A stretch of 64,000 bases of DNA, from contig JAXDKS010000063.1 of the NCBI GenBank assembly GCA_034666985.1, positions 105,226-169,225 on the forward strand. Reading direction: 5' to 3'. Each line of letters begins with the position of its first letter. The stretch's first letter is position 1. Below the pieces are notes generated by a model. That model was not told the DNA's origin, did no database searches, and was given only the letters and a program-made list of their open reading frames with translations. Made by a program: the position numbers and the translations under genes. Positions 1,546-23,695 of the stretch are shown here, piece after piece. Source of the DNA: Acidobacteriota bacterium (GTDB lineage: Bacteria > Acidobacteriota > Thermoanaerobaculia > Multivoradales > UBA5704).

Positions 1546-2064
1546 ATGGCGAACGCACCACACCCTCCGGGTCCCCTGCGCCCCGTTTCGAACCGCCTGC
1601 GCGGCTGGACCGTTGTCGGCGCCGACGGCGAGAAAATCGGCACCGTCCACGAGCAGCTCGCCGATCCCGACGGCGCCGCCTGGCTGGACGTGGAGTTGGA
1701 CGGGACGGCCCTGGCCCAGGACCTGGAAGCCGGCGGCCGCGGCCAAGGCTCGCGGATCACCGCCGGCGCCTACCCCGCCGATCCCAACCGGCCGGGCGCC
1801 CGCCCCCTGGCCGACGCCGAGCCCACGGTGGGCGAGTCGAGCCGCACGGCCTTCCTCAACACCGGCTCGCGCCAGCACGCGGAGGAGGCCACCGGCTCCG
1901 TCCCCCGCGACGACGACCGCCAGGGAGGCTCCGGCCGCCTGGAGCACCCCCGCGTCCTGATCCCCCTCGACGCCACCCTTCTCAAAGAGAAGGACGAGCA
2001 GGTGGTCCTCGAGACCCTGCGGGCGGTGGATCTGGCGGCCTTGCCGACGTACGCGCCGGCGTAG
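1546..2064 (+). CDS. PRC-barrel domain protein
   Basis: ATG at 1546. N-terminal LRGWTVVGADGEKIGTVHE resembles PRC-barrel domains, followed by a low-complexity C-terminal tail. Confidence 0.65.
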   Translation: MANAPHPPGPLRPVSNRLRGWTVVGADGEKIGTVHEQLADPDGAAWLDVELDGTALAQDLEAGGRGQGSRITAGAYPADPNRPGARPLADAEPTVGESSRTAFLNTGSRQHAEEATGSVPRDDDRQGGSGRLEHPRVLIPLDATLLKEKDEQVVLETLRAVDLAALPTYAPA

Positions 2065-2078
2065 CCCTCCCCCCCTGT

Positions 2079-2119
2079 CCCCCTCTCCCACCCCTCCTGC
2101 TCCCCACCGGGAGAGGGGG
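2079..2119 (+). terminator. GC-rich hairpin (11-bp stem CCCCCTCTCCC/GGGAGAGGGGG, 19-nt loop) after the PRC-barrel gene; possible terminator with a weak U-tract
   Basis: Perfect inverted repeat read directly from the sequence, lying 15 nt after the stop at 2062-2064. Confidence 0.35.
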
Positions 2120-2306
2120 GCCTGTGGATTTCGCCGTAGCAATATGCTAAAAACTTCGTCAACTTCCGACGTCGATGGCCAGGCACGACGGGGAGGCGTC
2201 TGTCCGAACAGGCGCTTGCCGGCTTGGGAAACCCTCCGGGGGAGGTGTCCCGGGGTGCCTGGACGCGGACCGCCGGTCTCATTCAGACCTCGTGATTGGA
2301 GTGCCC

Positions 2307-2660
2307 GTGGAGCAAGAGCTACCGATCATCCAGATCCGCAACTGCCTGCTGGTGAGCATCCAGACCGAGCTGCACGACCGGTTGGCCCTGGACCTCCAGG
2401 CCTCGCTGATGGAGCGGGTCCGCGTCGTCAACGCCCGCGGCGTCATCCTGGACGTCTCGGCCGTGGAGGTCATCGACAGCTACATCACCCGCATCCTCAA
2501 CGACATCGGCAAGTCGGTGCGCTTCATGGGCGCCGAGTGCTACATCGTCGGCATCCGGCCGGCGGTGGCCATGACCCTGATCGAGATGGGGGTCGAGCTC
2601 GACTCGGTCCACACCGCCCTCAGCCTCGACCTGGCCCTGGAGAGGCTCGAGCTCCTGTGA
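2307..2660 (+). CDS. rsbS: RsbS-like STAS-domain stressosome scaffold / antagonist protein
   Basis: LPIIQIRNCLLVSIQTELHD...VILDVSAVEVIDSYITRIL...GAECYIVGIRPAVAMTLIEMG aligns along its length with B. subtilis RsbS. GTG at 2307 lies 6 nt after GGAG; GTG at 2292 or 2301 are alternative starts. Confidence 0.85.
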   Translation: MEQELPIIQIRNCLLVSIQTELHDRLALDLQASLMERVRVVNARGVILDVSAVEVIDSYITRILNDIGKSVRFMGAECYIVGIRPAVAMTLIEMGVELDSVHTALSLDLALERLELL

Positions 2661-3349
2661 AGACCGTCGAGAAAGAGATCGGGGCGATCCTCGCGGGGAC
2701 GATCTCGTCGATCACCCAGCGGAGCATCTTCAACCGTCTGGGCGGTCTCGCCACGACGCCGATCCACCAGCTCACCGCGGCCGACCGGGCGACCATCCTG
2801 TCCGAGCTCGAGAACTCGGTGCGCCTGTTCGCCCGCAGCAACAGCGCGCAGCTCATCGCCGCCATCGCCAAGGCCCTGAGCGCCGAGGGGGGCGCGCCGG
2901 GTCTGGGGAGCGCGGTGGGCGTCGGCGCCGCGCCCATGCCGGCGCCCAAGAAGCTCCCCATCGAGCAGGAGAAGGACATCGCGACCGCGCGCCTGGAGGC
3001 GTGGAGCGAGGCGGTGCGCATCGGCCTCTCCAAGTTCGCCTCGGTGAAGGTGGCGACGGCGGTCTCCGAGCTCGCCCGCAACATCATCTTCTATGCCGTC
3101 AAGGGCACCGTCGAGCTGCGCTCCCTCAAGGATGAGCGTGGCATCGTCGGACTGCAGATCATCGCCTCCGACAACGGCCCCGGCATCCCTCCGGCCAAGC
3201 TCGAGGAGATCTGGGCCGGCACCTACAAATCGCAGCGCGGCATGGGCAAGGGGCTGGTAGCGGTCAAGAAGCTGGTGGACGAGTTCCAGCTCGACACCCG
3301 GACCGGAGTGGGGACCACCGTGACCTGCATCTTCCGGGGGGAACGTTGA
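2657..3349 (+). CDS. RsbT-like switch serine kinase (GHKL/HATPase_c) with a ~93-aa N-terminal extension
   Basis: The C-terminal 137 aa (ATAVSELARNIIFYAVKGTVELRSL...IIASDNGPGIP...GMGKGLVAVKKL) align with RsbT. The GTG at 2657 overlaps the rsbS stop (GTGA). The upstream 279 nt are open, GC3-rich and protein-like. An internal ATG at 2936 would give a canonical-length RsbT. Confidence 0.8.
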   Translation: MKTVEKEIGAILAGTISSITQRSIFNRLGGLATTPIHQLTAADRATILSELENSVRLFARSNSAQLIAAIAKALSAEGGAPGLGSAVGVGAAPMPAPKKLPIEQEKDIATARLEAWSEAVRIGLSKFASVKVATAVSELARNIIFYAVKGTVELRSLKDERGIVGLQIIASDNGPGIPPAKLEEIWAGTYKSQRGMGKGLVAVKKLVDEFQLDTRTGVGTTVTCIFRGER

Positions 3350-3981
3350 AAACCGGTGGTTTCAGCCGTCCGTACAAGGGGCTGTCGATCTGTGGCGACA
3401 GCTTCGTCATCGAGGAGCGCGACGGGACCCTGCTCGCCGCCGTGGTCGACGGGCTCGGCCATGGCTACGAGTCGTCGGTGGCCGCCGAGCGGGCCTCGGA
3501 AGTCATCCGCGAGCTCGCCGATCAGTCGGTGGACGCCATCCTGCGGCGCTGCCATCAGGAGCTGCGCGTCACCCGCGGCGCCGCCGTCGGCCTGCTCAAA
3601 GTGGCCGCGGGGGGCGAGGGCGAGTTCTGTGGCATCGGCAACATCGAGGTGCAGGCGCTCAACGGCCAGGCGCCCAGCGTCTTCTGCCTCGCCGGCATCG
3701 TGGGGCACAACATGCGCTCCTCCAAGGTGATGAGCGTGACCATGAAGCCGGGCGACATCTACTGTCTGATGAGCGACGGCGTCTCGATCCGGGGCAACCT
3801 GAAGTCGTGCCTGCCAGGACCGCCCGAGACGGTGGCGCGGCGCATCGTCGAGCACTGGGGACGGGACCACGACGACGCCACCGCCGTCGTCGTCGGCTTC
3901 GGCGAGGCGGAGCTGCTCGCCGATCCGTCCAATGGCCGGCCGTGGGTGGCGGCCCCGGTGACCGCGAACCGAGGGAAATGA
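3346..3981 (+). CDS. rsbX: RsbX-like PP2C (PPM/SpoIIE-family) serine phosphatase
   Basis: SICGDSFVIEERDGTLLAAVVDGLGHG matches the RsbX N-terminus, with a PPM-like remainder. The TTG start at 3346 overlaps the upstream stop (TTGA). Confidence 0.8.
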   Translation: MKTGGFSRPYKGLSICGDSFVIEERDGTLLAAVVDGLGHGYESSVAAERASEVIRELADQSVDAILRRCHQELRVTRGAAVGLLKVAAGGEGEFCGIGNIEVQALNGQAPSVFCLAGIVGHNMRSSKVMSVTMKPGDIYCLMSDGVSIRGNLKSCLPGPPETVARRIVEHWGRDHDDATAVVVGFGEAELLADPSNGRPWVAAPVTANRGK

Positions 3982-4028
3982 AGCGAAGTGAAGCAATGAA
4001 GCTTTCTTTCTACTGACTGGAGGGTCTC

Positions 4029-4463
4029 ATGGCGATCGCGGATGAAAGGATCAACACGGCCGACCTGATCTCCGGCAAGCACGTCACCTACTTCGAGGAG
4101 CCGGACATCATCTACATGCGCTTCGGCGGGAGCGCCACCACCGAGGACTCCCTGGAGCTGCTGCGGCGCCAGATTGACATGTCCAAGGGCAAGAGCCTCC
4201 TGTTCTTCCTCATCGACGCCGAGAAGCTCGACAACATCGCTCCCGAAGGGCGCAAGGCCGTGGCCGAGACCCTGAAGGAGATCCCGCTGCGCGGCATGGC
4301 CGTCATCAAGGCGCCGCTCAAGGCCAAGGTGGTCACCAAGCTGGTGATCACCGCGATCAACCTGTTCCGCCGGGACGCGAACCTGAATCCCATCGCGTTC
4401 TTCGACACCGAGGAGGAGGGCCGTCAATGGATCGCCTCCCGGCGCCTGATGTTTGCGAAATGA
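4029..4463 (+). CDS. SpoIIAA-like / STAS-like (DUF3478-type) small protein
   Basis: RBS GGAGGG lies 6 nt before ATG 4029. The architecture ...LLFFLIDAEKLDNIAPEGRKA...GMAVIKAPLKAKVVTK...FFDTEEEGRQWI resembles SpoIIAA-like proteins. This call is from memory of the family and not confirmed. Confidence 0.5.
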   Translation: MAIADERINTADLISGKHVTYFEEPDIIYMRFGGSATTEDSLELLRRQIDMSKGKSLLFFLIDAEKLDNIAPEGRKAVAETLKEIPLRGMAVIKAPLKAKVVTKLVITAINLFRRDANLNPIAFFDTEEEGRQWIASRRLMFAK

Positions 4464-4501
4464 CCGTTTGCGAAATGATGACCTGCGAATAGAGAAAGGG
4501 T

Positions 4502-5221
4502 ATGGCGAGGAAAAAAGGTATGGATCAGACCGAAGTGCCCCACGTCAGTGTCGCCTCCGAGCGTCTGCAGTTGGTGATCGAGGCGCTCTCCTACGCAAGT
4601 GTCGACGAATTCGACTCCTGCCTCGCCCTGCTGCAGCGCTCCACCGAGAGGGACGAATTCTCCGAGTTGGAGACGGCCTTCTCCATCTTCGTCCGCGAGC
4701 TCGGCGAGGCCAAGAACGAGCTCAACCGCGCGCTCACCCAGCAGGAGGCCGCCAACCGCGAGCTGGAGGCCAAGCTCGAGACCATCGAGATGCAGCAGGC
4801 CGCCATCCGCGAGCTCTCCACTCCCATCATCGAAGTCTGGGCCGGCGTCCTCTGCCTGCCCGTGGTGGGCGTCGTGGACAGCCAGCGCAGCGCCGAAATG
4901 ACCGAGACGCTGCTCGAGACCATCGTCGCCAAGCAGGCCCGCATGGCCATCGTGGACATCACCGGCATCGACGTGATGGACACCAAGACCGCGGACCACT
5001 TCATCAAGATGGCCCGCGCCGTCCGCCTGCTGGGCGCCGAGTGCATCGTCAGCGGCATCAACCCGGGGATCGCGCAGACCCTCACCCACATCGGCGTCGA
5101 CCTCACGGGCGTGCGCACCTTGCGCAGTCTGCGCGACGCTCTGCAGCTCTACCTGCGGGAGACCGAGCAACTCGTGGTGCAGCAGAAATCGCACTTCGCC
5201 CGCCGGGAGAGTGAGATCTAA
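4502..5221 (+). CDS. rsbR: RsbR-like stressosome sensor: non-globin N-terminal domain, coiled coil, then STAS domain
   Basis: The C-terminal STPIIEVWAGVLCLPVVGVVDSQRSAEMTETLLETIVAKQARMAIVDITGIDVMDTKTADHFIKMARAVRLLGAECIVSGINPGIAQTL is a canonical RsbR STAS domain. It follows a heptad-rich linker. Confidence 0.8.
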   Translation: MARKKGMDQTEVPHVSVASERLQLVIEALSYASVDEFDSCLALLQRSTERDEFSELETAFSIFVRELGEAKNELNRALTQQEAANRELEAKLETIEMQQAAIRELSTPIIEVWAGVLCLPVVGVVDSQRSAEMTETLLETIVAKQARMAIVDITGIDVMDTKTADHFIKMARAVRLLGAECIVSGINPGIAQTLTHIGVDLTGVRTLRSLRDALQLYLRETEQLVVQQKSHFARRESEI

Positions 5222-5262
5222 CGGGTGCTGCGGGAGCCTTCCGGAACGCAGAGGCCGGCCGG

Positions 5263-5691
5263 TTGAGCAGGAAGGCGTTCCCCATCCGGGGACGTAGCGA
5301 GGTCGTGACGGTGAGCAGTCATGCCGGCCGGATGGCCCGGGAGCTCGGCCTGGACGCCCGCCGCTCCATGGAGCTGGCGATCGTCGTCTCGGAGCTGGCC
5401 TCGAACATCGTCAAGCACGGGATCCGGGGAGAGATCGTGCTGACCTTCGATCCCGATTCGCCCCAGGGCGAGATCACCGTCGAAGCCAACGACGTCGGCC
5501 CCCCGATCCGCGACCTCCAGCTCGCCATGATCGACGGCAACGACGATCAGGGTCCCATCGATCCCGCCCTCATCCTGCGCCGCGGCGGCCTGGGCACCGG
5601 CCTCGGCGCCGTGGCCCGCCTCGCCGACCGCATCGAGTACCGCGAGGTCGAGGGGGGGAAGACGATCACGGCGCGGTTCTACCGGAAGTAG
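5263..5691 (+). CDS. rsbT: RsbT-like switch serine kinase, canonical length (142 aa); second paralog
   Basis: AFPIRGRSEVVTVSSHAGRMARELGLDARRSMELAIVVSELASNIVKHG aligns residue-for-residue with the B. subtilis RsbT N-terminus, followed by a GHKL fold. The start at 5263 is TTG. Confidence 0.8.
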   Translation: MSRKAFPIRGRSEVVTVSSHAGRMARELGLDARRSMELAIVVSELASNIVKHGIRGEIVLTFDPDSPQGEITVEANDVGPPIRDLQLAMIDGNDDQGPIDPALILRRGGLGTGLGAVARLADRIEYREVEGGKTITARFYRK

Positions 5692-5710
5692 GTATACTCG
5701 CCGCACCCCA

Positions 5711-6880
5711 ATGCGAGCGAAACGTCTGGCCATCCTCCTCCTGGTCGCCGTCGCCGGCCTGGCGCTGGCCGAGGGGGCGGTGCGGATCTTCTGGCCGCAG
5801 CCGGCCTTCTATGCTTCCCCCGGGCTGTTCGTCGACGACCCCAAGGTCGGGCACCGCATGCGGCCGGGCCTGCGGGGGGAGGTGGGCAACTGGGCCGAGT
5901 TCACGACCCAGGTGCGGATCAACCGGCTCGGGATCCGCGGTCCCGAGATCGGTCCGCGCCGGCCCGGCGTGCGGCGCGTGCTCGTGCTGGGCGACTCCTT
6001 CACCTTCGGTACCGGAGTCGAGGAGGAGGAGGCCTTCCCCGCGCGGCTCGCGGCCGAGCTCACCCGCGCCGGCATCCCCGCCGAAGGGATCAACGCCGGG
6101 ATGGGCGCCTACGGCGTGCCCGACGAGGTGGCCTGGTTCGAAAATTATGGGCGGCAGCTCCACCCCGACCTGATCCTCCTCGGCATCTTCACCGGCAACG
6201 ACCTGCAGGACGCCGCTCCGGACCATCCGCCGATCTACGTGGTCCACGGCGACATCGTGGACGAGGCCGAGCGGCACCGCTCGTCCACCGGCCACTGGCT
6301 CTTCCAGCACTCCCAGCTCTTCGCCCTGCTCAAGTACTCGCTGCCCAACCCGGTGGACCGCGCCCTGCGCCGGGCGCTCCACCTGCCGGAGCCTGGAGCC
6401 ATCCGTTACCTGCGGGAGGAGATGGCCCTCTACGATCCACGGAGCCGGCCGGCGGCGGAGGCGAGCGGAGGCGCCGCTTCGGAGGCGGCGATCCGCCATC
6501 TCCTCGATCTCACCCGCGCCGACCACACCCGCGTCGCCGCCCTGCTCCTCCCCTCCGCTCTCCAGGCGGACGACCGCGTCTGGAATCGCACGCTGCACCA
6601 GCTTCACCTCGCGCCGACGCAGGTCGACCGCATGCTGCCGAACGAGATCTTCTCGGCGGCGCTCGCGCGCTGCGGCGTGCCGGCCCTCGACCTCACTCCG
6701 GACCTCGCGGCGGCGATCCGCCAGGGCGAGGTGGACTTCTTCCCCAAGGACCAGCACTTCACCGCGGCCGGGCACCGCCGCATCGCCAGGGATGCCGCCG
6801 GGTTCCTGCGCGCCCGGGGGCTCCTGGTTGAACCTGCCGCGGCGCCCCGGATACACTCCGCAGCCGCCGGCGCCCTCTGA
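5711..6880 (+). CDS. SGNH/GDSL-family hydrolase (esterase / O-acetyl-modifying enzyme) with N-terminal signal/TM
   Basis: VLVLGDSFTFG serine block with later GxND and DxxH-like motifs, and an N-terminal hydrophobic segment. ATG at 5711. Confidence 0.7.
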   Translation: MRAKRLAILLLVAVAGLALAEGAVRIFWPQPAFYASPGLFVDDPKVGHRMRPGLRGEVGNWAEFTTQVRINRLGIRGPEIGPRRPGVRRVLVLGDSFTFGTGVEEEEAFPARLAAELTRAGIPAEGINAGMGAYGVPDEVAWFENYGRQLHPDLILLGIFTGNDLQDAAPDHPPIYVVHGDIVDEAERHRSSTGHWLFQHSQLFALLKYSLPNPVDRALRRALHLPEPGAIRYLREEMALYDPRSRPAAEASGGAASEAAIRHLLDLTRADHTRVAALLLPSALQADDRVWNRTLHQLHLAPTQVDRMLPNEIFSAALARCGVPALDLTPDLAAAIRQGEVDFFPKDQHFTAAGHRRIARDAAGFLRARGLLVEPAAAPRIHSAAAGAL

Positions 6881-6901
6881 AGAAGGCTCGCGTTTCTCCT
6901 C

Positions 6902-9457
6902 ATGACCTCCGCACCCCCCAGGACCTCGCGCAAAACGTGGCTGGTGCTCGCCGCCATCCTCCTCGGGATCGCGGCCGCCGGGGCTTGGTGGGCCCGCGGG
7001 CACAAGGACACGGTGCGGGCTGCCCTGCGCGCCGTCGATCCCAGCACCGACGCCCGCCCGGCGACGCCCGCGGGGCCGGAGGTCTCCTCCCCCGAGTACG
7101 CCCGCCTGGGCGACGGCTTCCTGGTCTGGGAATCGAACCGCACGGGACCCTGGCGCATCTGGACGCGCCGGCTCGACGGCTCGGGCCTGCGCCAGTTGTC
7201 GCCCGACGAGAGCGGGCACGAGCACTGCTGCGCCCACATCTCCCCCGACGGCCAGCAAGTGGCCTATTTGAGCCTCAGCAACTTCAAGTACGGCGCCGAC
7301 CCTGAGGAGGGGAAGCTCCACCTGATCAAGCCCGACGGCAAGGGGGACCGCGTCGTGGCCGAGCGGGCGCAGACCTACAGCCGCGGCCACCGCGCCGCCA
7401 TCTGGCACGGCGACCAGCTCCTGCAATTCGTGGACGGCGACGGCAACGCCATCCTCCTCGACTTGGCGAAGGGCAAGACGGAGACGCTGGCCGGCCCCAG
7501 CAGCGAGGGCAAGGGCTGGCTGGTGAACCGCACGCGGACCCACGCCACCACGGGGCTGCCGACGTTCTCGCTGTTCGACGCCGCGCGCCACGCCGTCACC
7601 GAGCGCACCCCCTACGGCGGTTGCGAGCCCTACTTCTCCGACGACGGCCGCTGGGGGATCTGGATGGCGGGAGCCGGCGGACCGCTGCGCGCCTTCGACC
7701 TCGCCACGCGCACCACCCGGACGCTGTTCGAGAAGAACGATCCGCGGCTCGGCGAGCAGGCCTACCTCTACTTCCCCATGCTGTCCAACGGCTCGGCCCT
7801 CGTCGCCTTCGGAGCGTCGGCCAACGAGCACGACCACGAGAAGGGGAACTACGACGTGTTCGTGGCCGAGGTCGATCCCAACACCATGGAGGTCCTCGGC
7901 CAGCCCCTGAAGTACACCTCCGCGCCGACCCCGGACCGCTATCCGGACGTGCACGTGGAACCGCTGCCGCTCGGCCGGATGTTCGGCGAGGCCCCGTTCC
8001 ACGTCCGTCTCCAGGATCCGAAGCTCGGCCCCGGCGCCGTCTGGGACTTCGGCGACGGCACCCCGGCCTCGGCGGCCCGCGGGGAGCACACCTACGAGCG
8101 GCCGGGGAGCTTCTCCATCTCGGCGCGCACCGCCGACGGTAGCCCCCTGCGCGGCCGGGTGACCGTGCTCCCCGCCCAGCCGCCCCACGCCCTGCGGGCC
8201 GAGTTGCGCCAGGGACGCGAGATCTTCGTCTCCTTCGACGAGCCGGTCGCCGCCGCCCCGGGCGGGGTGAAGGCCCGTCTGGCCTCGGGGCGGGCGATCG
8301 CCGGAACCGCCATCGGCGCCGACGGCCGCAGCCTGATCGCCTCCCTCGCCGAGGACCTCACGACCGGGGACCACCTGCACCTCGAAGGGATCGCCGACCG
8401 CGCGCAACGGCCGAACGTCCTCGCGCCGGTCGACCTGGAGATCCCGCCTCCCAGTTGGCCGATGGATCGGAGGAGCCTCATCCTGCTCTGGGAGACGGCC
8501 GACCAGCCCAACCTCGTCCCCGATCCGGCGCAGGCCGCGGACCGCACCTACGCCGTGACGCCCCACGGCCGCGCGCGCCTGAACCACGATCACGCCATGC
8601 TGCTGGTGGGCGATGGTGCCTTCCAGGCTGAGGGGGAGGCGGGCAAGAGCCTCGTCGAGCTGGCCGAGAAGAGCAACGAGATCACGCTGGAGCTGACGCT
8701 CACTCCGGCCGAGGCGACGCCCGCGACCTCGGGAGTCCTCCTCTCCTTCGGCCGCTATAAGGGAGGACCTCTCCTCCAGCTCGAGCAGCAGGGGGACGCC
8801 CTGGTCTGGCGCCTGCTGCACAACAAGTCGCTGGACCCGCCGGCCCGTTTCGGCAAGCTCGTGCCGGGTCAACCCGTGCACGTGGTCGCCGGCTACAGCC
8901 CGGGCCGTCAGGTGGTCTACGTGAACGGCGTCAAGGTGCTGGACGGCGACGCCTGGCAGGGGGATTTCTACTTCTGGAAGCCGGGCGCCCTCTCCATCGG
9001 CGCAGGTCACGAAGGCGAGCGCCCCTGGAAGGGCGTGATCGAGGGGCTCGCCCTCTACGATCGTCTCCTCGGCCCGGACGAGGCCGCGGAGAACGCCCGC
9101 CGCTACGCCACGGAGCGGGCTCGCCGGGCGGCCGTGCCCCAGACTCGCGTGCTCGCCACCCTCCAGCGCTGCTCGCGCATCCCCTCGCTCGACGAGATCG
9201 CCCCCTACCGCCAGGCCCTCGCCGTCTGCGAATACCGGGTGGACCGCGTGCTGGCCGGCACCCTCGCAAGCCCGACCGTCCGCGTCGCCCGCTGGGTGAT
9301 CCTCGACGGGGCGACGCTGAATCCTGCCCAGGGCTCCTCGGTGCCGCTGGCCCTCGAGCCGTTCAGCGCCAACGGGCAGCTCGAGAGCATCTACCTCTCG
9401 AACGACCTCCGCGGCAGCTCCACCTCACCGCTCTTCTACGACCCCACGAGCGGGTGA
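6902..9457 (+). CDS. Large membrane-anchored periplasmic protein: TolB-like beta-propeller (PD40 repeats), PKD domain, LamG/ConA-like domain
   Basis: N-terminal TM, then WESNRTGPWRIWTRRLDGSG / ISPDGQQVAYLS PD40-like repeats. PKD-like VWDFGDGTPASAARGEHTYERPGSFSIS. C-terminal LamG-like block (...YVNGVKVLDGDAWQGDFYFWKPGALSIGAG...LALYDRLL). Confidence 0.65.
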   Translation: MTSAPPRTSRKTWLVLAAILLGIAAAGAWWARGHKDTVRAALRAVDPSTDARPATPAGPEVSSPEYARLGDGFLVWESNRTGPWRIWTRRLDGSGLRQLSPDESGHEHCCAHISPDGQQVAYLSLSNFKYGADPEEGKLHLIKPDGKGDRVVAERAQTYSRGHRAAIWHGDQLLQFVDGDGNAILLDLAKGKTETLAGPSSEGKGWLVNRTRTHATTGLPTFSLFDAARHAVTERTPYGGCEPYFSDDGRWGIWMAGAGGPLRAFDLATRTTRTLFEKNDPRLGEQAYLYFPMLSNGSALVAFGASANEHDHEKGNYDVFVAEVDPNTMEVLGQPLKYTSAPTPDRYPDVHVEPLPLGRMFGEAPFHVRLQDPKLGPGAVWDFGDGTPASAARGEHTYERPGSFSISARTADGSPLRGRVTVLPAQPPHALRAELRQGREIFVSFDEPVAAAPGGVKARLASGRAIAGTAIGADGRSLIASLAEDLTTGDHLHLEGIADRAQRPNVLAPVDLEIPPPSWPMDRRSLILLWETADQPNLVPDPAQAADRTYAVTPHGRARLNHDHAMLLVGDGAFQAEGEAGKSLVELAEKSNEITLELTLTPAEATPATSGVLLSFGRYKGGPLLQLEQQGDALVWRLLHNKSLDPPARFGKLVPGQPVHVVAGYSPGRQVVYVNGVKVLDGDAWQGDFYFWKPGALSIGAGHEGERPWKGVIEGLALYDRLLGPDEAAENARRYATERARRAAVPQTRVLATLQRCSRIPSLDEIAPYRQALAVCEYRVDRVLAGTLASPTVRVARWVILDGATLNPAQGSSVPLALEPFSANGQLESIYLSNDLRGSSTSPLFYDPTSG

Positions 9458-9466
9458 GCCCGGCCC

Positions 9467-10924
9467 GTGGTCTTCAGCTCCCACCTCTTCGTCTACTACT
9501 TCCTGCCGCTCGCCCTGGCCGCCTACTACCTGGCGCCGCGGCGGGGGAAGAACCTTGTCCTCACCCTGTTCAGCTTCGTCTTCTACGGCTGGGCGAACGT
9601 GGCCTTCATCCCGCTGCTGATCACCTCGACGCTCATCGACTACTTCTGCGGCCTGGGCCTGACGGGCGGCTTCCGTCCGCCCTGGCGCGGCGAGCTCCCG
9701 CTGCTGGAGCCGGGCGGGCCGCGCAGCCGATCGCAGAAGGCTATCCTGGCCGTCTCCATCACCGCCAACCTCCTGCTGCTCGGCTTCTTCAAATACTTCA
9801 ACTTTTCGGTGGACAGCTACAACGCCGTGGTCGAGACCTTGGGCTTCACCGGCGCGCGGCTCGATTCGGTGATGCGGGTGGTGCTGCCGCTCGGCATCAG
9901 CTTCTACACCTTCAAGAGCATGAGCTACGCCATCGACGTCTATCGCGGCGAAGCGCGCGCCATGCGCCACCTCGTCGACTTCTTCTGTTTCGAGTCGATG
10001 TTCCCGGACCTCGTGGCGGGACCGATCATCCGCTTTTCGGAGATCGCGGACCAGCTCGTGAACCGCACGATCACCAGCGAGAAATTCGCGCGCGGCGTCG
10101 CCTTCTTCTGCCTTGGGATGGCGAAGAAGGTGCTGCTCGCCAACCCCTGCGGCAGGATCGCCGACACCACCTTCGGCGCCGGCGCCCTCGGCGCGCTCGA
10201 CGCCTGGCAGGGCCTGTTCGCCTATGCCTTCCAGATCTATTTCGACTTCAGCGGCTACTCCGACATGGCGATCGGTCTCGCCCTGATGCTCGGCTTCATG
10301 TTCCCCAAGAACTTCGACTCGCCCTACAAGGCCGTATCGATCACCGACTTCTGGCGCCGCTGGCATCTGTCACTCTCGACCTGGCTGCGCGACTACCTTT
10401 ACATTCCACTGGGCGGCAACCGCAAGGGCGAGGGGCGCACCTATGTCAACCTCTTCCTCGTCATGCTGATCGGCGGCCTCTGGCATGGGGCGGCGTGGAC
10501 GTTCGTGATCTGGGGAGCCATCCACGGCGGCTGGCTGGCACTCGAACGGGCGCTCGGCAAGGACAGTTGGTACCGCCGGCTGCCGCACGTGGGTCGCGTG
10601 GCGCTGACCTTCTTCATCGTCCTCATCGCCTGGGTCTTCTTCCGGGCGCCGGACCTGGGGAGCGCCCTGCACTACCTGGGGAGCCTCGCCGGCCTGGGGG
10701 GGACCATGCCCGGGGCGGCCCTGATCGGTGGGCTGATCCGCCGCCCCTACGACCTGCTCAACCTCGCGCTGGCGGCGGTGATCGTCTGGGGCGCCCCGCA
10801 GACCTGGGACTGGACCCGCAGGCTGACTTGGCCCAAGGGCCTGATCTGTCTCGCCCTGCTCGGCCTGGCGCTGGCCGCCATGGCGACGCAAGGCTACAAC
10901 CCGTTCATCTACTTCATCTTCTGA
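9467..10924 (+). CDS. MBOAT-family membrane-bound O-acyltransferase (AlgI/PatA/DltB-like)
   Basis: Multi-TM protein carrying the conserved MBOAT block WRRWHLSLSTWLRDYLYIPLGGNRKG...GGLWHGAAW with the catalytic His. GTG start at 9467. Confidence 0.9.
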   Translation: MVFSSHLFVYYFLPLALAAYYLAPRRGKNLVLTLFSFVFYGWANVAFIPLLITSTLIDYFCGLGLTGGFRPPWRGELPLLEPGGPRSRSQKAILAVSITANLLLLGFFKYFNFSVDSYNAVVETLGFTGARLDSVMRVVLPLGISFYTFKSMSYAIDVYRGEARAMRHLVDFFCFESMFPDLVAGPIIRFSEIADQLVNRTITSEKFARGVAFFCLGMAKKVLLANPCGRIADTTFGAGALGALDAWQGLFAYAFQIYFDFSGYSDMAIGLALMLGFMFPKNFDSPYKAVSITDFWRRWHLSLSTWLRDYLYIPLGGNRKGEGRTYVNLFLVMLIGGLWHGAAWTFVIWGAIHGGWLALERALGKDSWYRRLPHVGRVALTFFIVLIAWVFFRAPDLGSALHYLGSLAGLGGTMPGAALIGGLIRRPYDLLNLALAAVIVWGAPQTWDWTRRLTWPKGLICLALLGLALAAMATQGYNPFIYFIF

Positions 10925-10933
10925 GGCGGACCT

Positions 10934-12226
10934 GTGAATTCCATCCCCGAGCCTGAACGCGAGCGGATCGCCAAGATCGAGATCGGCCACACCGACGTCT
11001 CGAAGGCGCTGGCGTGGGTTCTCGTCCTCCTCTTCCTGGCGGTGATCGCCACGGTGCCGATCATCGACCTCGTCACGGGGAGGGCCCGGCAGACGGGCGT
11101 CACCCCGGGCTCGCTCGCCGCCGTGGGGCCCGTCATCCGTCAGGACGGCTGGATCGCCGGCGCCTACGCCCTCCTGCGCCAGATGCACCAGCTCGAAGAC
11201 GGCCTCGAACGGAAATCCTGGCTTGGCGCCGCCCTGCTGCCGCGGACGCAGCGCGTGCTGACCGCTTTCGGCGTCGGCAACGAGAAGGTCTACCTCGGGC
11301 GGGACCGCTGGCTCTACTACACGCCGGACGTGCAGTACGTGACCGGCTTCCCCTTCCTGGATCGCAACGTCCTCGAACGCCGGCGGCTCGGCGGCCAGGC
11401 CTGGGAGGAGGCGCCCCACCCCGACCCGCTCCCTGCCCTGGTCGATTTCCAGCGCCAGCTCGCCCGGCGCGGCATCGCCCTGCTCCTGGTGCCCACGCCG
11501 CTCAAGCCGATGATCGATCCCGAGCCGCTCGCGGGCGCCCGCCCCGCGACGCTCCCTCTGGAGAACCCCTCCTGGCCCGACTTCGTCCGCCGGCTCGACG
11601 CCGCCGGCCTCGCGCTCTTCGACCCCGCCCCCCTGCTCGCACAGGAGAAGGCCGCGCACGGCGGCCAGCCGCAATATCTCCGCACAGACACCCACTGGAC
11701 CCCGCAGGCGATGGACTTGGTGGCGACTCGCCTCGCCGAGCGCATCCAGGCCCTCGTTCCTCTCGATCCTCCCACCGGAACCGGCTTCTTCCGTCAGGCG
11801 CAGACCGTCTCGAACACGGGCGACCTCGCGGTCCTCCTCACCCTGCCGCCGGCCCATCCGCTCAAGGAGCCGGAGCGGGTGACGATCCAGCGCGTGGTGA
11901 CGGCCGAAGGCCGCTCCTGGAAGCCCGATCCCCAGGCCGCCGTCCTCCTCCTGGGCGACAGCTTCACCAACATCTACTCGCAGAGCGACCTCGGCTGGGG
12001 CACCGGCGCCGGCCTCGCCGAGCAGCTCGCCTACCATCTCGGCCGCCCGGTCGACCGCATCGCCCTGAACAGCGGCGGCGCCCTCAACACCCGCCAGCGC
12101 CTCGCCCAGGATCTCGCCACCGGCAACGACCGCCTCGCCGGCAAGAAGGTCGTCGTCTACCAGTTCGCCATGCGCGAGCTGGCGATCGGGGATTGGCGGG
12201 TGATCGGGCTGGGGGGCGGGCGGTAA
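10934..12226 (+). CDS. AlgJ/AlgX/PatB-like SGNH-fold O-acetyltransferase partner of the MBOAT
   Basis: N-terminal TM anchor and C-terminal LLLGDSFTNIY...LNSGGALNT block typical of AlgJ-family proteins. The position immediately 3' of the MBOAT gene supports the call. Confidence 0.65.
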   Translation: MNSIPEPERERIAKIEIGHTDVSKALAWVLVLLFLAVIATVPIIDLVTGRARQTGVTPGSLAAVGPVIRQDGWIAGAYALLRQMHQLEDGLERKSWLGAALLPRTQRVLTAFGVGNEKVYLGRDRWLYYTPDVQYVTGFPFLDRNVLERRRLGGQAWEEAPHPDPLPALVDFQRQLARRGIALLLVPTPLKPMIDPEPLAGARPATLPLENPSWPDFVRRLDAAGLALFDPAPLLAQEKAAHGGQPQYLRTDTHWTPQAMDLVATRLAERIQALVPLDPPTGTGFFRQAQTVSNTGDLAVLLTLPPAHPLKEPERVTIQRVVTAEGRSWKPDPQAAVLLLGDSFTNIYSQSDLGWGTGAGLAEQLAYHLGRPVDRIALNSGGALNTRQRLAQDLATGNDRLAGKKVVVYQFAMRELAIGDWRVIGLGGGR

Positions 12227-12277: not shown

Positions 12278-15200
12278 ATGCCTCCCAAACTGCTGTCTGT
12301 CCGAGGTCGTGGCCTCGTCGGGTTTGCGGTTCCCATCCTATCCCTTCTCCTCGCCCGGCCGATGCAGGCCGAGGCTCCAAAGTCGGAGGAGACCCTGCCG
12401 CTTGGAGAGGCCCGCGAGCGTCCGATCACAGTAGGCGAGGCCCACGCCTGGCGGGTCACGGTGGAGCCGGGCACGAACCTCCTGGTGACGGTCGACCAGC
12501 ACAGCATCGACCTGGTACTGGAAGCCCGGGGGGAGGGCCGGGAGCCGATCGCCGTCCATGCGGGTGATCGCTGGGGGCTGGAAGTCCTGCTCCTCGAGAC
12601 CGCGGGCGAGGTTCGGATTGAGGTCCGGCCCCGGCAGAAATCGGCATGGCCAGGGCGCTATACGATCCGAACCGAGGCCTTGTCGACGGGAGAAAGCGCC
12701 AGGCGTGATGCCCTGGCCTTGCTGAGCCGGGCCGGCCAGGAGGCCCTGCCGGACACCCCCGACTCCAACCGGCAAGCCCTGGCCACCTACCGCGAGGCTC
12801 TGGCGGCCTGGCGCTCGCTCGGCGATCGCGCCTGGGAGGCCGAGGCTCTCGCCTGTCTCGCCATCCTGGAGGCGAATTCGGGCGAGCTCCGGCGAGCGGA
12901 TGAGGACTTCCTGGCGGCGCTCGGGCTATGGCGAGAGTTGGGACAGCCTCACCGCGAGGCCGAAGCCTTGAATTGGCTCGGTGGCGTCATCTACCCGAAG
13001 ACTCAGACCATCGAAAGGTCGCGCGAAGCCCTGGAGGGCGCCCGCGCCCTCTGGCACCGCCTCGGGGAGAGCTCCGACGAAGCGGAGACCCGCAGCAGTC
13101 TCTGCTTCCTCGAACAGACCCGCGGGTCGCTGCAGGCGGCGCTCGCCTGCCATGAGGAGGTCCTCGCGATCTTCAGGGCGCTCGGCGACCAGGAAAACGA
13201 GGCCCGGGTCCTCAATAACCTCGGCGGCACCTACAACCTCCTGGGTGAGCCGGACGCCGCGCTCGCTTCCCTCGAGAAGGCCCTGGCCTTGCGGCATGCC
13301 CTCGACGACCGCCAGGACGAGGTGGGGACCCTGATCAACATCGCGGCCCTCCATCGCTCCCTGGGCGAGTGGCAGGAGGCCCTGCGCTTCTACGACCAGG
13401 CCCGGGAGATGCTGAAAACCCTTGGCGACCGCCGCCTGGAAGCCACGATGCTCAACAATATGGGCTTCACCTACCTCAACCTGGGGGAGCCCGAACGGGC
13501 CCTGCCCTACCTGGAGGATGCCCTGGAGCGGCGCCGAGGGGTGGGCGACCGCTCGGGAGAAGTCACCACCCTGAACAATCTCGGCATGGCTTGGCGCAAG
13601 CTCGGCGATCTGAAGAAGGCGCTCGATCAGCACCGCCAGGCCTTAGATCTGGCCGTCGCTCTGAAAGACGTCGGGCAGCAGGCGACCAGCCGGCTGCGTC
13701 TCGCCGAGGCCCATCTGGATGAGGGCGATGCCGCCGCGGCGCTCCACGATCTCGATGCCGCCCTTGCGCTGCTGCGGGAGAAGGGCAACCGCCTCACGGA
13801 GACGGAGGTCCTTCACCAACGGGGGCGGGCGCTGACCCTGGCGGGCCGGGAGCGGGAGGCCCTCCCCGTGCTGCAGGAGGTCCTGGCTCGGCGGCAAGCC
13901 GTGCGCGATCGGGCCGGCGAGGCCGAGACGCTCTATGCGCTGGCCGTGGCGGAGCGGTCTCTGGGCCTCGCCGCGGAGGCGCGCGCCCATGTCGAGGCGG
14001 CCGTCGTCCAGGTGGAGGATCTGCGGCTCGGCATCGCCAGCCCGGACCTGCGGGCCTCTTTCCTGGCCACCCGGCGGCGGGCCTTTTCGCTCCTGATCGA
14101 CCTCCTGATGGACCGGCATGCCGCCGAGCCCGACCGCGGCCACGACCGCGAAGCCTTCTCCATCAGCGAGCGGGCCCGCGCGCGCAGCCTGCTCGACGCC
14201 CTGCGGGGCACGAGCCTGGGCCACCCGGGCAGCGGCGTGCCGGCCGAGCTCCTGAGCCGGCGGCGCATCCTCCTCCGGCGCCAGAGCGACAAGATCGATG
14301 AGCGATGGAAACAGAGCGGCGAAAAAGGGCAGGCCCTGGAGAAGGAGATCGATGCGATCGTCGCCGCGCTTGAGGCGGTGGAAGCGGAGATCCATCGAAA
14401 CGACCAGCACTTTGCCGCCGTGAGCGCGCCGCAACCCGTCGGCCCAGCGGAGATCTCCGGCTGGCTCGAGCCCGGCACGATGCTCCTGGAGTACTCCCTG
14501 GGCGAAGACCGCAGCTTTCTGTGGACGGTCGAGGCCGGCCAGATCCGCTCCTTCGTCCTTCGTGGTCAGAAGGAGATCGAGGACCTGACGCGCCGGGTCT
14601 ACGAGGAGCTGAGCACGGTGGAGTCCGGGAAGGTGCGCCCGGGAGAAGCGGCGGCGGCCCTGAGCCGGATCCTGCTCGGTCCCATCTGGAATGACCGGAG
14701 CGACGCGGCGCGGCTCCGCCGGCTGGTCGTGGTGCCTGACGGAGCGCTCGGCATTCTCCCATTTGCCGCCCTGCCGGTCCCCGATCCCGGCCGGAGCTGG
14801 CAGACTCCGGGGACCCTCCAGCCTCTTCTGGAGCGTCTGGAGGTGGTCTATATCCCCTCGGCCACCACCCTCGCCGTACAGCGGCAACGGCTGGAACGGC
14901 GCACACCGGCTCCCAAACGGGCAGCGGTTCTCGCCGATCCGGTGTTTGCCGCGGACGATCCGCGCCTGGCCCACCGGTCCGCTGCAAGCCCGCCGAAGCT
15001 GGGAAAGAAGGTGGAGACGAAATCTCTTCTCCGCGGTGGCGGAGCGTCCTTCGAGCCCCTGCCTGCGACCCGCCGGGAGGCGGAAGCCGTCGCCGGCCTG
15101 GCCCCCACCGGCGAAGTGTGGCTCAGGCTCGGCCTGGACGCCAGCCGCGAGGCCGTGCTCTCCGGGGCTCTCCGCGACTACCGCATCCTGCACTTCGCGA

Positions 15201-15628
15201 CGCACGCCGTCGCCGACATGCAGAACCCGGAGCTCTCCGGCCTGATGCTTTCGCAGGTGGACGCCGAGGGCCACCCCCAGGAGGGCTTCCTCGGCCTGTC
15301 GGACATCTACGAGCTCGACCTCGACGCCGACCTGGTGGTCCTCTCCGGCTGCCGGACCGCGATGGGCAAGGAGGTCCGTGGCGAGGGACTCATGGGATTG
15401 ACCCGCGGGTTCCAGTACGCTGGCGTGCCGCGGGTGGTGGCAAGCCTGTGGCGGGTGCAGGACCGGGCCACCGCGGAGCTGATGACCCGCTTCTACCGGG
15501 CGATGTGGCGCGACCACCTGGCCCCCGCGGCGGCCCTGCGCGCGGCTCAGAAGTCGCTCCGCCGCGAGCCCCGCTACCGCGATCCCTACTCCTGGGCCGG
15601 CTTCGTCCTCCAGGGCGACTGGCATTGA
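12278..15628 (+). CDS. Secreted TPR-repeat protein with C-terminal CHAT (caspase-like) domain
   Basis: Signal peptide, then more than 10 TPR-like repeats (ALNNLG.., ALxxxxxALxLxRxLGD). C-terminal CHAT block ILHFATHAVAD...LVVLSGCRTAMG carrying the His/Cys dyad. RBS TAGGAG precedes ATG 12278. Confidence 0.85.
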   Translation: MPPKLLSVRGRGLVGFAVPILSLLLARPMQAEAPKSEETLPLGEARERPITVGEAHAWRVTVEPGTNLLVTVDQHSIDLVLEARGEGREPIAVHAGDRWGLEVLLLETAGEVRIEVRPRQKSAWPGRYTIRTEALSTGESARRDALALLSRAGQEALPDTPDSNRQALATYREALAAWRSLGDRAWEAEALACLAILEANSGELRRADEDFLAALGLWRELGQPHREAEALNWLGGVIYPKTQTIERSREALEGARALWHRLGESSDEAETRSSLCFLEQTRGSLQAALACHEEVLAIFRALGDQENEARVLNNLGGTYNLLGEPDAALASLEKALALRHALDDRQDEVGTLINIAALHRSLGEWQEALRFYDQAREMLKTLGDRRLEATMLNNMGFTYLNLGEPERALPYLEDALERRRGVGDRSGEVTTLNNLGMAWRKLGDLKKALDQHRQALDLAVALKDVGQQATSRLRLAEAHLDEGDAAAALHDLDAALALLREKGNRLTETEVLHQRGRALTLAGREREALPVLQEVLARRQAVRDRAGEAETLYALAVAERSLGLAAEARAHVEAAVVQVEDLRLGIASPDLRASFLATRRRAFSLLIDLLMDRHAAEPDRGHDREAFSISERARARSLLDALRGTSLGHPGSGVPAELLSRRRILLRRQSDKIDERWKQSGEKGQALEKEIDAIVAALEAVEAEIHRNDQHFAAVSAPQPVGPAEISGWLEPGTMLLEYSLGEDRSFLWTVEAGQIRSFVLRGQKEIEDLTRRVYEELSTVESGKVRPGEAAAALSRILLGPIWNDRSDAARLRRLVVVPDGALGILPFAALPVPDPGRSWQTPGTLQPLLERLEVVYIPSATTLAVQRQRLERRTPAPKRAAVLADPVFAADDPRLAHRSAASPPKLGKKVETKSLLRGGGASFEPLPATRREAEAVAGLAPTGEVWLRLGLDASREAVLSGALRDYRILHFATHAVADMQNPELSGLMLSQVDAEGHPQEGFLGLSDIYELDLDADLVVLSGCRTAMGKEVRGEGLMGLTRGFQYAGVPRVVASLWRVQDRATAELMTRFYRAMWRDHLAPAAALRAAQKSLRREPRYRDPYSWAGFVLQGDWH

Positions 15629-15647
15629 AAGGACGTTGAAACTTCGG

Positions 15648-15677
15648 GTGAGACAACCGGCAGCCTCGCGACAGTCT
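15648..15677 (+). promoter_or_regulatory. Copy 1 of a bipartite promoter-like motif GTGAGAYA-N12-GCGACAGTCT (putative ECF sigma promoter; likely autoregulatory)
   Basis: Identical architecture and spacing to the sites at 17771-17800 and 20909-20938. Lies 53 nt upstream of the ATG of the first gene of the sigma operon. Confidence 0.55.
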
Positions 15678-15729
15678 TAGGGATGAACTGACATGGGCTC
15701 TCGAAGAGCCCGTTTGAAAGGAGTCCGAA

Positions 15730-16170
15730 ATGGCCAGATCCATAGTGACAGATGCCCCGAGAGTCATCCTTCAAAACCCGCCTTGGATGAGCCGGCCTTG
15801 GCGCATTCGATCCTCCTCCGATCCCCTCCTGGGAGTGGCGCCGCACCCGGACATTCTGCTGTTCACCACGGCAGGAAAGATCACAGTCCTGAAGAACGGC
15901 GACACGCAGACGCAGAAGGACTGGGCCAAGTCGTGCCAGCTCACGGCCGGCGGGGGGCTCTCAGGTCTCACGTCGGACAACAAGCCCTTCCTCATCCAGT
16001 ATAACTCCAGCACCAAGCATCTGACCTGTCATATCCCCCCCCTGGAGGTAGGAACCTCAGCCAAAATGCCCGGCCCGGGCGCTACCTGGGTCGCGGAGGA
16101 AGGGGGTTCCGGCGGCCCGGGTTCCGGCGGCCCGCCGCTGCCCAAAAATCCTGGCCCGTCCCGAGACTGA
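15730..16170 (+). CDS. Hypothetical small protein, probably first gene of the ECF sigma operon
   Basis: RBS AAAGGAG lies 8 nt before ATG 15730, and the promoter-like motif sits just upstream. No recognisable domain; Gly/Pro-rich tail. Confidence 0.5.
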   Translation: MARSIVTDAPRVILQNPPWMSRPWRIRSSSDPLLGVAPHPDILLFTTAGKITVLKNGDTQTQKDWAKSCQLTAGGGLSGLTSDNKPFLIQYNSSTKHLTCHIPPLEVGTSAKMPGPGATWVAEEGGSGGPGSGGPPLPKNPGPSRD

Positions 16171-16309
16171 GCCGTCTCAGGAGACGCCCTCCGTGCGCGC
16201 CACGTTGGCATCCAGCCCCGATCCCCGAGATATGATGTTCGTCGTTCTCGGAAGATCTGGAGCATGGCCGGCCGGGCCGGTTCGCCCGGGTGGAGGCACG
16301 CTGGGCGTC

Positions 16310-16912
16310 ATGAGCACCGATGTGGGACCAGAGCCGGACGAGGCGGCGGTCGCTGCCGACCTCGTCCGGCGGATCGCGGCGGGAGATGCGACCGCCGAAG
16401 GGCAGCTCGTCGAACGCTACCGTCGGGGCCTCCTCTATCTGCTGCGCCGCCTCGGGGCCCTGCCGGACCTCGCCGACGACCTCCAGCAGGAGACCTTCCG
16501 GATCGTGATCGAACGGCTGCGCCAGGAGGGTCTCGCGGACCCGGCCGGCCTCGCGCCCTTCCTCCGCGGCACGGCCCGCAACCTTCTCATCGCCGAAAGG
16601 CGCAAGGCGGCGCGCCGGCGGACCTGGGGCGACACGGGCGAGCTGGCCGAGGCCGTGGCGCCCGCGCCGAGCCAGCTCCAGTCCGTGCTGCTGGACGAGG
16701 AGGCCGAGATCGTGCGAAAACTGATCGGCGAGCTCCCCACCGACCGCGACCGGCAGCTCCTGCTACGCTTCTACGTCGGCGAGGAGGACAAGGAGAGCAT
16801 CTGCACTGATCTCGGGCTCGACAGTCTTCACTTCAACCGCGTCCTCTTCCGGGCCCGCCAGCGCTTCAAAGAGCTCCTGGAACGCTTCGAGAAACGGCAG
16901 GCCCGGGCCTAG
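16310..16912 (+). CDS. ECF (group 4) sigma-70 family sigma factor
   Basis: Region 2 (LVERYRRGLLYLLRR...DLQQETFRIVIERL) and region 4 HTH (ELPTDRDRQLLLRFYVGEEDKESICTDLGLDSLHFNRVLFRARQRFKELL). ATG at 16310; GTG 16193 would add an atypical 39-aa extension. Confidence 0.85.
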   Translation: MSTDVGPEPDEAAVAADLVRRIAAGDATAEGQLVERYRRGLLYLLRRLGALPDLADDLQQETFRIVIERLRQEGLADPAGLAPFLRGTARNLLIAERRKAARRRTWGDTGELAEAVAPAPSQLQSVLLDEEAEIVRKLIGELPTDRDRQLLLRFYVGEEDKESICTDLGLDSLHFNRVLFRARQRFKELLERFEKRQARA

Positions 16913-16937
16913 TGAAGGCCCGAAGGAAGGACAACGG

Positions 16938-17774: not shown

Positions 17775-17800
17775 GATAGCGCGCCGGCCGGCGACAGTCT
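17771..17800 (+). promoter_or_regulatory. Copy 2 of the GTGAGATA-N12-GCGACAGTCT promoter-like motif, 41 nt upstream of the M36 protease ATG
   Basis: Near-identical to copy 3 over about 40 nt, including the leader (GATCGAACG / GATCAAGCG and TCGAAAGGAG RBS context). Confidence 0.6.
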
Positions 17801-17840
17801 CCGATCGAACGCTCTGATGAGCGATCGAAAGGAGAGAAAA

Positions 17841-20810: not shown

Positions 20811-20835
20811 ATTGATCCCGGCTGCACCGTGTTCT

Positions 20836-20861
20836 GCCCCCGGGCCGTCCGGCCCGGGGGC
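20836..20861 (+). terminator. GC-rich hairpin (11-bp stem GCCCCCGGGCC/GGCCCGGGGGC, loop GTCC) after the M36 gene; possible terminator lacking a U-tract
   Basis: Perfect inverted repeat 26 nt after the stop at 20808-20810. Confidence 0.35.
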
Positions 20862-20908
20862 CCTTCCCGCCTGACGCTCTAAAAAACCTTTCGCACTTCT
20901 CGCTTGAC

Positions 20909-20938
20909 GTGAGATAACGGCCCGCCTCGCGACAGTCT
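20909..20938 (+). promoter_or_regulatory. Copy 3 of the GTGAGATA-N12-GCGACAGTCT promoter-like motif, 49 nt upstream of the VWA protein ATG
   Basis: See copies 1 and 2. Followed by the shared leader and RBS context TCGAAAGGAGA. Confidence 0.6.
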
Positions 20939-20986
20939 CAGATCAAGCGTGGATCATTGGGATCACCCGCTCGAAAGGAGACTGTC

Positions 20987-23682: not shown

Positions 23683-23695
23683 CGGATCGGCGGGC

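Follow-up and report, generated by a model that had tools for sequence, protein, structure and literature searches.

How stressosomes signal without sigma-B is an acknowledged open question (PMC9237108). It is raised in concrete form by six co-directional genes in a 64-kb stretch of DNA from an uncultured member of the Thermoanaerobaculia (Acidobacteriota), a stretch that we call the window. A first-pass annotation of the window described these genes as a stressosome-like RsbR/S/T/X module that lacks sigB and contains two RsbT paralogues and an additional SpoIIAA-like protein. We refer to the genes and their products, in genomic order, as S, T1, X, P4, R, and T2, where S, T1, X, and R are the RsbS-, RsbT-, RsbX-, and RsbR-like members, P4 is a divergent protein of predicted STAS fold, and T2 is the second RsbT-family protein; T1N denotes the N-terminal domain of T1 (Table 1). 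From comparisons of sequence and gene order, we conclude that the six genes probably form one self-contained 'T1N-type' stressosome cassette, in which the core is combined with a coupled accessory or output layer consisting of T1N and T2, perhaps together with P4.

Modules that encode RsbR, RsbS, RsbT, and RsbX without sigB are widespread and are the common form outside the Bacillales (PMC9237108, citing Pane-Farre 2005), with VvRsbRSTX of Vibrio vulnificus as an example of a minimal module of this kind (PMC9237108, PMC4976288). Their downstream partners are diverse and mostly uncharacterised, have mostly been guessed from gene neighbourhood, and in one tested Vibrio downstream pair did not interact (PMC9237108). 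Thus, rsbRSTX without sigB is already well known. The three conserved extras of the cassette, T1N, T2, and P4, are undescribed, and we found no published description of paired RsbT paralogues or of an extended RsbT.

A stressosome-type core

The six open reading frames (ORFs) lie on the + strand at 2307-5691, with the coordinates and common direction reported by the first-pass annotation, and their G+C content at third codon positions (0.88-0.92) is that expected for coding sequence in a genome of ~70% G+C. The assigned start codons fit the lengths and N-termini of homologues, which for S are 117-118 residues long. Both of the previously proposed start/stop overlaps can be read in the sequence, as the 4-nt GTGA at 2657-2660 between S and T1 (ctGTGAag) and the 4-nt TTGA at 3346-3349 between T1 and X (cgTTGAaa), and two related contigs have equivalent 4-nt overlaps. 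The overlaps at both junctions indicate co-translation of S, T1, and X. The nearest database proteins are encoded in metagenome-assembled genomes of Thermoanaerobaculia or other Acidobacteriota, and the JGI label for T1 is 'RsbT'.

Table 1. Coordinates and main properties of the six genes and of the N-terminal domain of T1, in window positions.
Feature	Assignment	Position	Strand	Properties
S	rsbS-like	2307..2660	+	117 aa; single STAS domain; GTG start, preceded by GGAG
T1	RsbT-orthologous GHKL Ser/Thr kinase	2657..3349	+	230 aa; kinase residues ~100-230; GTG start
T1N	N-terminal four-helix domain of T1 (predicted)	nt 2657-2890	+	residues 1-78; Gly/Ala/Pro-rich linker to kinase
X	rsbX-like single-domain PP2C phosphatase	3346..3981	+	211 aa; TTG start
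P4	divergent protein of predicted STAS/SpoIIAA-like fold	4029..4463	+	144 aa; without canonical phospho-acceptor
R	rsbR-like	4502..5221	+	239 aa; short helical/coiled-coil N-terminal region, C-terminal STAS
T2	second RsbT-family GHKL kinase-like protein	5263..5691	+	142 aa; own clade

The window proteins were compared directly with those of rsbR-S-T-U-V-W-sigB-rsbX operons fetched from Bacillales (Sporosarcina, Planococcus, Bhargavaea). S matches Pfam STAS (E=5.7e-12), scores 93-100 bits against RsbS of the Bacillales sigB operons, and carries a phospho-acceptor, Ser58 in the motif VIDS, that is equivalent to B. subtilis S59 and is kept in 84 of 86 homologues. R matches Pfam STAS at residues 110-200 (E=3e-11) and scores 93-104 bits against Bacillales RsbR; its Thr161 and Thr206, the equivalents of RsbRA T171 and T205, are kept in 22 of 22 Thermoanaerobaculia homologues and in most others too. 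The linker and STAS part of R also match the NCBIfam family YtvA_fam with E=2e-22, a score under that family's cut-off. T1 matches Pfam HATPase_c/HATPase_c_2 at residues 107-226 only (E=5e-11), leaving an N-terminal extension of ~100 residues. The kinase domain of T1 is 41-42% identical to Planococcaceae RsbT, scores 85-97 bits against Bacillales RsbT, and has intact N, G1 (DNGPGI), and G2 ATP-binding boxes; T1 falls into one clade with canonical RsbT in a neighbour-joining tree and is far closer to RsbT (E=3e-31) than to RsbW (E=1e-4) by hhalign. X matches Pfam SpoIIE/PP2C (E=7e-8) and, in phmmer searches, matches the terminal RsbX of the Bacillales operons at 40-77 bits, with no match to RsbU of the same fetched operons. 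The motifs CGDSF, VVDGLGHG, GIGNI, MSDGV, and DHDDAT can be read in X, and GIGNI is of the 'GN' type that marks RsbX-like group II PP2Cs (PMC4524716).

Judged by sequence, then, the RsbR/S/T/X set at the core is of the stressosome type. The identity proposed by the first-pass annotation is upheld by the domain matches, by the similarity to Bacillales operons, and by the retention of Ser58, Thr161, and Thr206; S, R, T1, and X each match their named counterparts, and STAS, HATPase_c, or SpoIIE/PP2C profile matches were obtained in five of the six proteins, that is, in all but P4. The reported lack of sigB and rsbUVW also stands for the window. Family hidden Markov models (HMMs) detected no other STAS, RsbT/RsbW-like, or RsbX/PP2C gene in the 64 kb, and Pfam scans of most window genes (a few at 50.9-64 kb were unscanned) found no group-3 sigma factor, RsbU, RsbV, or RsbW. 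The only sigma gene found in these scans encodes an extracytoplasmic function (ECF) sigma factor with its own zf-HC2 anti-sigma factor, 10 kb away. Because rsbRSTX without sigB is widespread outside the Bacillales, the absence of sigB and rsbUVW is expected and not remarkable in itself.

Conserved gene order and co-occurrence of T1N with T2

One genome per GTDB species was scanned with an alignment of T1, which yielded 80 loci whose ORFs were searched with the six window proteins. The order S-T1-X-P4-R-T2 was found in 16 of 19 distinct Thermoanaerobaculia loci, in which T1 is 59-85% identical, and one further Thermoanaerobaculia locus ends at a contig edge after R. The six genes also keep this order on two long contigs with 83-89% identical T1, one of which (locus L001) has different genes on both sides of the cassette. 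Recurrence of one order in 16 of 19 loci is far beyond chance, and the retention of this order while the flanks differ between loci shows that the cassette is a conserved, self-contained unit.

Related modules in the Myxococcota are rearranged. Loci L022, L026, and L044, which include Polyangium, have the order R-S-T1-X-T2 with an extended T1; L040 has X-T1-S-R-T2 followed by a P4 homologue (HMM E=3e-9); L058 has X-T1-S-R-T2; L055 has T2-T1-S-R; and L050 has S-T1-X-T2-R beside two small DUF7793/SpoIIAA-like proteins. Across 82 distinct loci, T2 was present in 23 of 27 with T1N compared to 1 of 55 without it (Fisher p=3e-15), in a test that ignores phylogeny and on a sample picked by T1-like kinases with 6-kb flanks. 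Outside the Thermoanaerobaculia the corresponding counts were 7 of 8 and 1 of 55 (p=1e-7). The same pattern appears in two phyla and survives rearrangement of the gene order, which speaks in favour of T1N and T2 being functionally connected. These counts also qualify the earlier remark that two switch kinases in one module are unusual: it is correct for ordinary short-RsbT modules, where two kinases are rare (about 3 of 55; L027, L034, and L082), but does not apply to the T1N-bearing subfamily, where a second kinase is the rule.

The same gene order could be read as two independent units that lie side by side, S-T1-X and P4-R-T2. In the first, T1 would phosphorylate S and X would undo this; in the second, T2 would serve R and/or P4 as their own kinase or binding partner, no joint stressosome would form, and T1N and T2 would have no link. 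The cassette does fall into two tight sub-blocks, with overlaps joining S, T1, and X and a gap of 47 nt before P4, and T2 is next to R at every Thermoanaerobaculia locus and at several from the Myxococcota (L040, L058). We nevertheless consider this division unlikely. S and R score best against RsbS and RsbR of sigB operons, where these proteins co-assemble; Polyangium and related loci show a canonical R-S-T1-X block and then T2; the six genes travel together while their flanks vary; the presence of T2 tracks T1N and not R; and the P4-R-T2 block would be left without a phosphatase.

The RsbR proteins of the Myxococcota modules with extended RsbT carry various sensor domains, namely PAS (L022 and L026), GAF (L058), or a Cys-rich N-terminus (L044). 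R has only a short helical N-terminal region in the Thermoanaerobaculia and in L040, L050, and L055.

The N-terminal domain of the switch kinase

An AlphaFold2 model of T1N, built from an alignment of 21 sequences, consists of four helices with a predicted local distance difference test score (pLDDT) of 90, and T1N is thus confidently predicted to fold as an independent domain. No Pfam family was matched by T1N in any of 24 diverse members, and no PDB entry matched its fold with better than E=3.5. In the sigma-B pathway, RsbT acts on the N-terminal domain of RsbU (RsbU_N). T1N shows no similarity to a profile of that domain built from 17 Bacillales loci (hhalign probability 0.65%), and no RsbU_N Pfam match was found anywhere in the cassette.

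A search with T1 of 1.84 billion representative proteins returned 3,381 clusters at E<=1e-3. Many of the 150 best clusters are 210-235 residues long and align over their full length at 31-40% identity, indicating that the extension is a family trait and not a local oddity. In the fetched loci, an HMM of T1N matches only the N-termini of T1-type kinases, from Thermoanaerobaculia and Myxococcota. In one protein of the representative library, P0367, a T1-like kinase and a Hanks-type Ser/Thr kinase domain are combined in a single sequence, either as a fusion or as a gene-calling artefact.

The second RsbT-family kinase

T2 matches Pfam HATPase_c_2 (E=1.6e-13), is 27-29% identical both to real RsbT and to T1, and is 36% identical to the T2 of Polyangium; in a neighbour-joining tree, the T2 proteins form a separate clade. 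By hhalign, T2 matches RsbT with E=2e-28 (score 165), compared to E=9e-10 (score 63) for RsbW. An assignment of T2 as an anti-sigma kinase of the RsbW/SpoIIAB type was considered and rejected, as its profile is much nearer to RsbT than to RsbW. Both kinases of the cassette are therefore members of the RsbT family and not of the RsbW family, as the first-pass annotation had proposed with its label of two RsbT paralogues. Its description of the shorter protein as a canonical-length paralogue is misleading, however, if taken to mean that T2 is the typical RsbT: the extended T1 is the closer orthologue, and the short T2 is divergent.

A 295-residue protein of the representative library, P0372, contains two RsbT-like HATPase domains in tandem; it may be a genuine fusion or result from wrong gene calling. 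Unless it is an artefact, its sequence suggests that paired RsbT-like kinases could work within one polypeptide.

The divergent STAS-fold protein

The P4 protein of the window has no Pfam match at E<=0.01 and falls below every Pfam threshold. Its AlphaFold2 model (pLDDT 78) has the secondary-structure order beta-beta-alpha-beta-alpha-beta-alpha-beta-alpha, which is the STAS order. In Foldseek searches, the best PDB matches of the model were 2q3l (DUF3478, SpoIIAA-like) and the SpoIIAA chains 1tid_B and 1thn_B, with E=1-3e-4; comparisons with SpoIIAA chains, bound to SpoIIAB in those structures, gave E=2-6e-4 and template-modelling (TM) scores of 0.56-0.68. Members of the P4 family gave weak matches to PF11964 (14 of 20 sequences, best E=9e-6), to DUF7793/PF25056 (15 of 20, best E=6e-5), and also to STAS, and one Myxococcota neighbour protein scored above the DUF7793 cut-off (28 bits versus 26). 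A jackhmmer search started from P4 converges on the STAS domains of RsbS, RsbR, and RsbV. Together, the model and these remote matches support a STAS fold for P4, in agreement with the earlier SpoIIAA-like/STAS-like call for this gene.

By hhalign, P4 aligns with RsbS at E=9e-4 and a probability of 22%, and Pro72 of P4 is aligned with the phospho-Ser. This Pro is invariant in 20 P4 sequences, whose mean column identity is 76%, and the residue before it varies (A/Q/E/S). Because of the invariant Pro72 at the phospho-Ser position, P4 cannot be a classical phosphorylatable antagonist or phospho-switch. The candidate assignment of P4 as a SpoIIAA/RsbV antagonist was rejected on this point: the fold fits, but P4 has no conserved phosphorylatable Ser/Thr where helix 2 begins.

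The Thermoanaerobaculia locus L010 (DATAHG010000425.1) contains two tandem cassettes at 1584-10799, of which the second lacks X and T2. The small STAS protein is locally expanded there, with six P4-like ORFs in 11 kb, a stretch that also contains three R genes.

A model for the cassette and its weaknesses

If the core works like its homologues in Bacillus, Listeria, and Vibrio, the STAS domains of S and R would join the two proteins in a scaffold, on which T1 would be sequestered. Upon a stimulus, T1 would phosphorylate Ser58 of S and Thr161 and Thr206 of R and would be released, and X would strip the phosphates from S and R and reset the complex. These roles by analogy, with S and R as scaffold, T1 as switch kinase, and X as reset phosphatase, have good support. 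For the accessory layer, the pattern of co-occurrence suggests that T1N may be a docking or regulatory domain, tethered by a flexible linker, for communication between T1 and T2, either by heterodimerisation or by handing on a signal. In that case, T1N and T2 together would take the place of the RsbT-to-RsbU_N step in the sigma-B pathway, and P4 might be a non-phosphorylatable STAS binding partner or adaptor of a kinase or scaffold rather than a phospho-switch. None of the six genes encodes the final target. A bolder version of this model, which we put forward tentatively and regard as possible but doubtful, is that T1N and T2, perhaps with P4, constitute an unrecognised output device: the docking domain of T1 would recruit or release T2, P4 would serve as the adaptor, and this kinase-to-kinase relay, in place of RsbT-to-RsbU_N, would be the signal route of sigma-B-less stressosomes in Acidobacteriota and Myxococcota.

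Several observations weigh against the interpretation of the six genes as one T1N-type cassette with a coupled accessory layer. Two Thermoanaerobaculia loci, L013 (1-2061) and L014 (4030-8273), have the order S-T1-X-R-S-T1-P4' and no T2 in the fetched DNA, where P4' is a divergent paralogue of P4 in which Pro again occupies the phospho-site position; T2 is therefore not obligatory, as S, T1, and P4 occur there without it. The core genes are also not in the contiguous order R-S-T-X, being arranged as S-T1-X-P4-R-T2. On the input side, the N-terminal 109 residues of R have no Pfam match and no recognised sensor domain. The phylogeny-blind design and T1-based sampling of the co-occurrence test bear on the T1N-T2 association, and the proposed link between T1N, T2, and P4 is inferred from co-occurrence. 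Finally, the G1 box of T2 reads DVGPPI, with Pro in place of the second Gly throughout the Thermoanaerobaculia orthologues. With this G1 box, the catalytic competence of T2 is uncertain, and T2 may lack kinase activity.

The altered G1 box also speaks for an alternative in which T2 is an impaired decoy pseudokinase that competes with T1 on the S/R scaffold and sets a threshold, P4 is a YtvA- or RsbS-like filler that tunes stoichiometry, and output is left to T1N alone. In the Myxococcota the box is variable as well (mostly DxGPG, with the variants DRGPGP and DHAPPF). P4 lacks a phospho-site, and its six copies in L010 resemble the expansion of RsbR paralogues in Bacillus. Variable stoichiometry of RsbR to RsbS has, moreover, been reported for the Vibrio stressosome (PMC9237108). 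T2 retains an intact N box (E44/N48) and G2 box, however, and might still bind ATP; P4 bears no more than a remote resemblance to the STAS domains of RsbS and RsbR, as the low hhalign probability attests, and it belongs to a DUF7793/SpoIIAA-like group that is not known to enter stressosomes. On balance, we assign the decoy model a low probability. We think it very unlikely that T2 and P4 are an RsbW/RsbV-like pair that controls a sigma factor elsewhere in the genome through a classical partner-switching cascade: a STAS-fold protein with a small GHKL kinase is indeed the composition of RsbV/RsbW or SpoIIAA/SpoIIAB, and the P4 model matches SpoIIAA from a complex with SpoIIAB, but T2 is nearer to RsbT than to RsbW, P4 has an invariant Pro at the phosphorylatable Ser of RsbV/SpoIIAA, the window contains no RsbU-type phosphatase or group-3 sigma factor and only the ECF sigma factor with its zf-HC2 partner, and P4 is present also in cassettes without T2.

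All three alternatives are less likely than a single T1N-type cassette with a coupled accessory layer. The candidate partners (T2, T1N, and a small STAS protein) travel with the core in a sizeable extended-RsbT subfamily, whose relatives are numerous among the 3,381 T1 clusters and whose hosts belong to abundant, poorly studied soil phyla. The accessory layer may be a candidate for the missing output step of sigma-B-less stressosomes, and from it follow three concrete, testable hypotheses on protein-protein interactions, together with a domain family that is new and calls for definition. If the extras do no more than tune a threshold, the cassette elaborates a known system only modestly.

Comparison with known systems

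Minimal rsbRSTX modules are the nearest known systems; besides the Vibrio example, MtR/S/T/X of Moorella thermoacetica is reportedly a further one, from work by Quin et al. in 2012. The cassette shares with such modules the same four protein types, both Thr sites, the Ser site, the lack of an adjoining sigB or rsbUVW, and a Gram-negative phylum. It differs by its S-T-X-P4-R-T2 order, by T1N on RsbT, and by T2 and P4, has no two-component, GGDEF, or PP2C downstream module, and encodes an R without globin, PAS, or another recognised sensor. Compared to the rsbR-S-T-U-V-W-sigB-rsbX operon of Bacillus subtilis and Listeria, S, R, T1, and X are each homologous and keep the phospho-acceptors, whereas RsbU, RsbV, RsbW, and SigB are missing from the window, T1N is unlike RsbU_N, and T2 is not RsbW. 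P4 shares a predicted STAS fold with SpoIIAA/RsbV and with PF11964 (DUF3478)/DUF7793, from which its invariant Pro in place of Ser sets it apart. The SiaABC(D) threonine-phosphorylation switch of Pseudomonas aeruginosa follows the same logic, in which a PP2C phosphatase, a small RsbT/RsbW-like GHKL kinase, and a small protein of STAS-like fold have a non-sigma output, and is a functional analogue only (PMC7647112). P4 has no Pfam match to the SiaC family (DUF1987), and the genes beside the cassette do not include one for a diguanylate cyclase.

Neighbouring genes

Upstream of the cassette lie genes for a glycerol-3-phosphate dehydrogenase (DAO_C; 56-748), a small protein with a single transmembrane segment (1296-1529), and a PRC-barrel protein (1546-2064). 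These three genes recur in many Thermoanaerobaculia loci, and it is only the upstream side that recurs; the trio could be co-regulated with the cassette or simply syntenic. Immediately downstream, 5711-12226 is a polysaccharide O-acetylation-like cluster resembling alginate AlgI/AlgJ/AlgX genes, with products that include a GDSL/AlgX-like hydrolase, a PKD-LamG protein, an MBOAT protein, and an AlgX-like protein. This cluster is shared with locus L003 only and is not recurrent in the class. The Polyangium module L022 also adjoins a gene for a GDSL-motif protein.

The stretch 12278-22231 looks like a separate regulatory unit. It comprises a CHAT-TPR protein (12278-15628), the ECF sigma factor (16193-16912) and its zf-HC2 anti-sigma factor (16938-17774), an M36 fungalysin-type metallopeptidase with an FTP propeptide (17817-20810), and an unannotated protein of 424 residues. 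Further along, a signalling-dense stretch on the - strand (22298-23820, 27154-28188, 35827-37761, and 38643-41291) encodes a LuxR-type response regulator with a HisKA_3 kinase, an FHA-GAF protein, an FHA-GAF sigma-54 activator, and a Hanks kinase with TPR. At 23582-28606, ORFs of >1,600 residues are open on both strands over 5 kb, probably as a high-G+C artefact around smaller genes.

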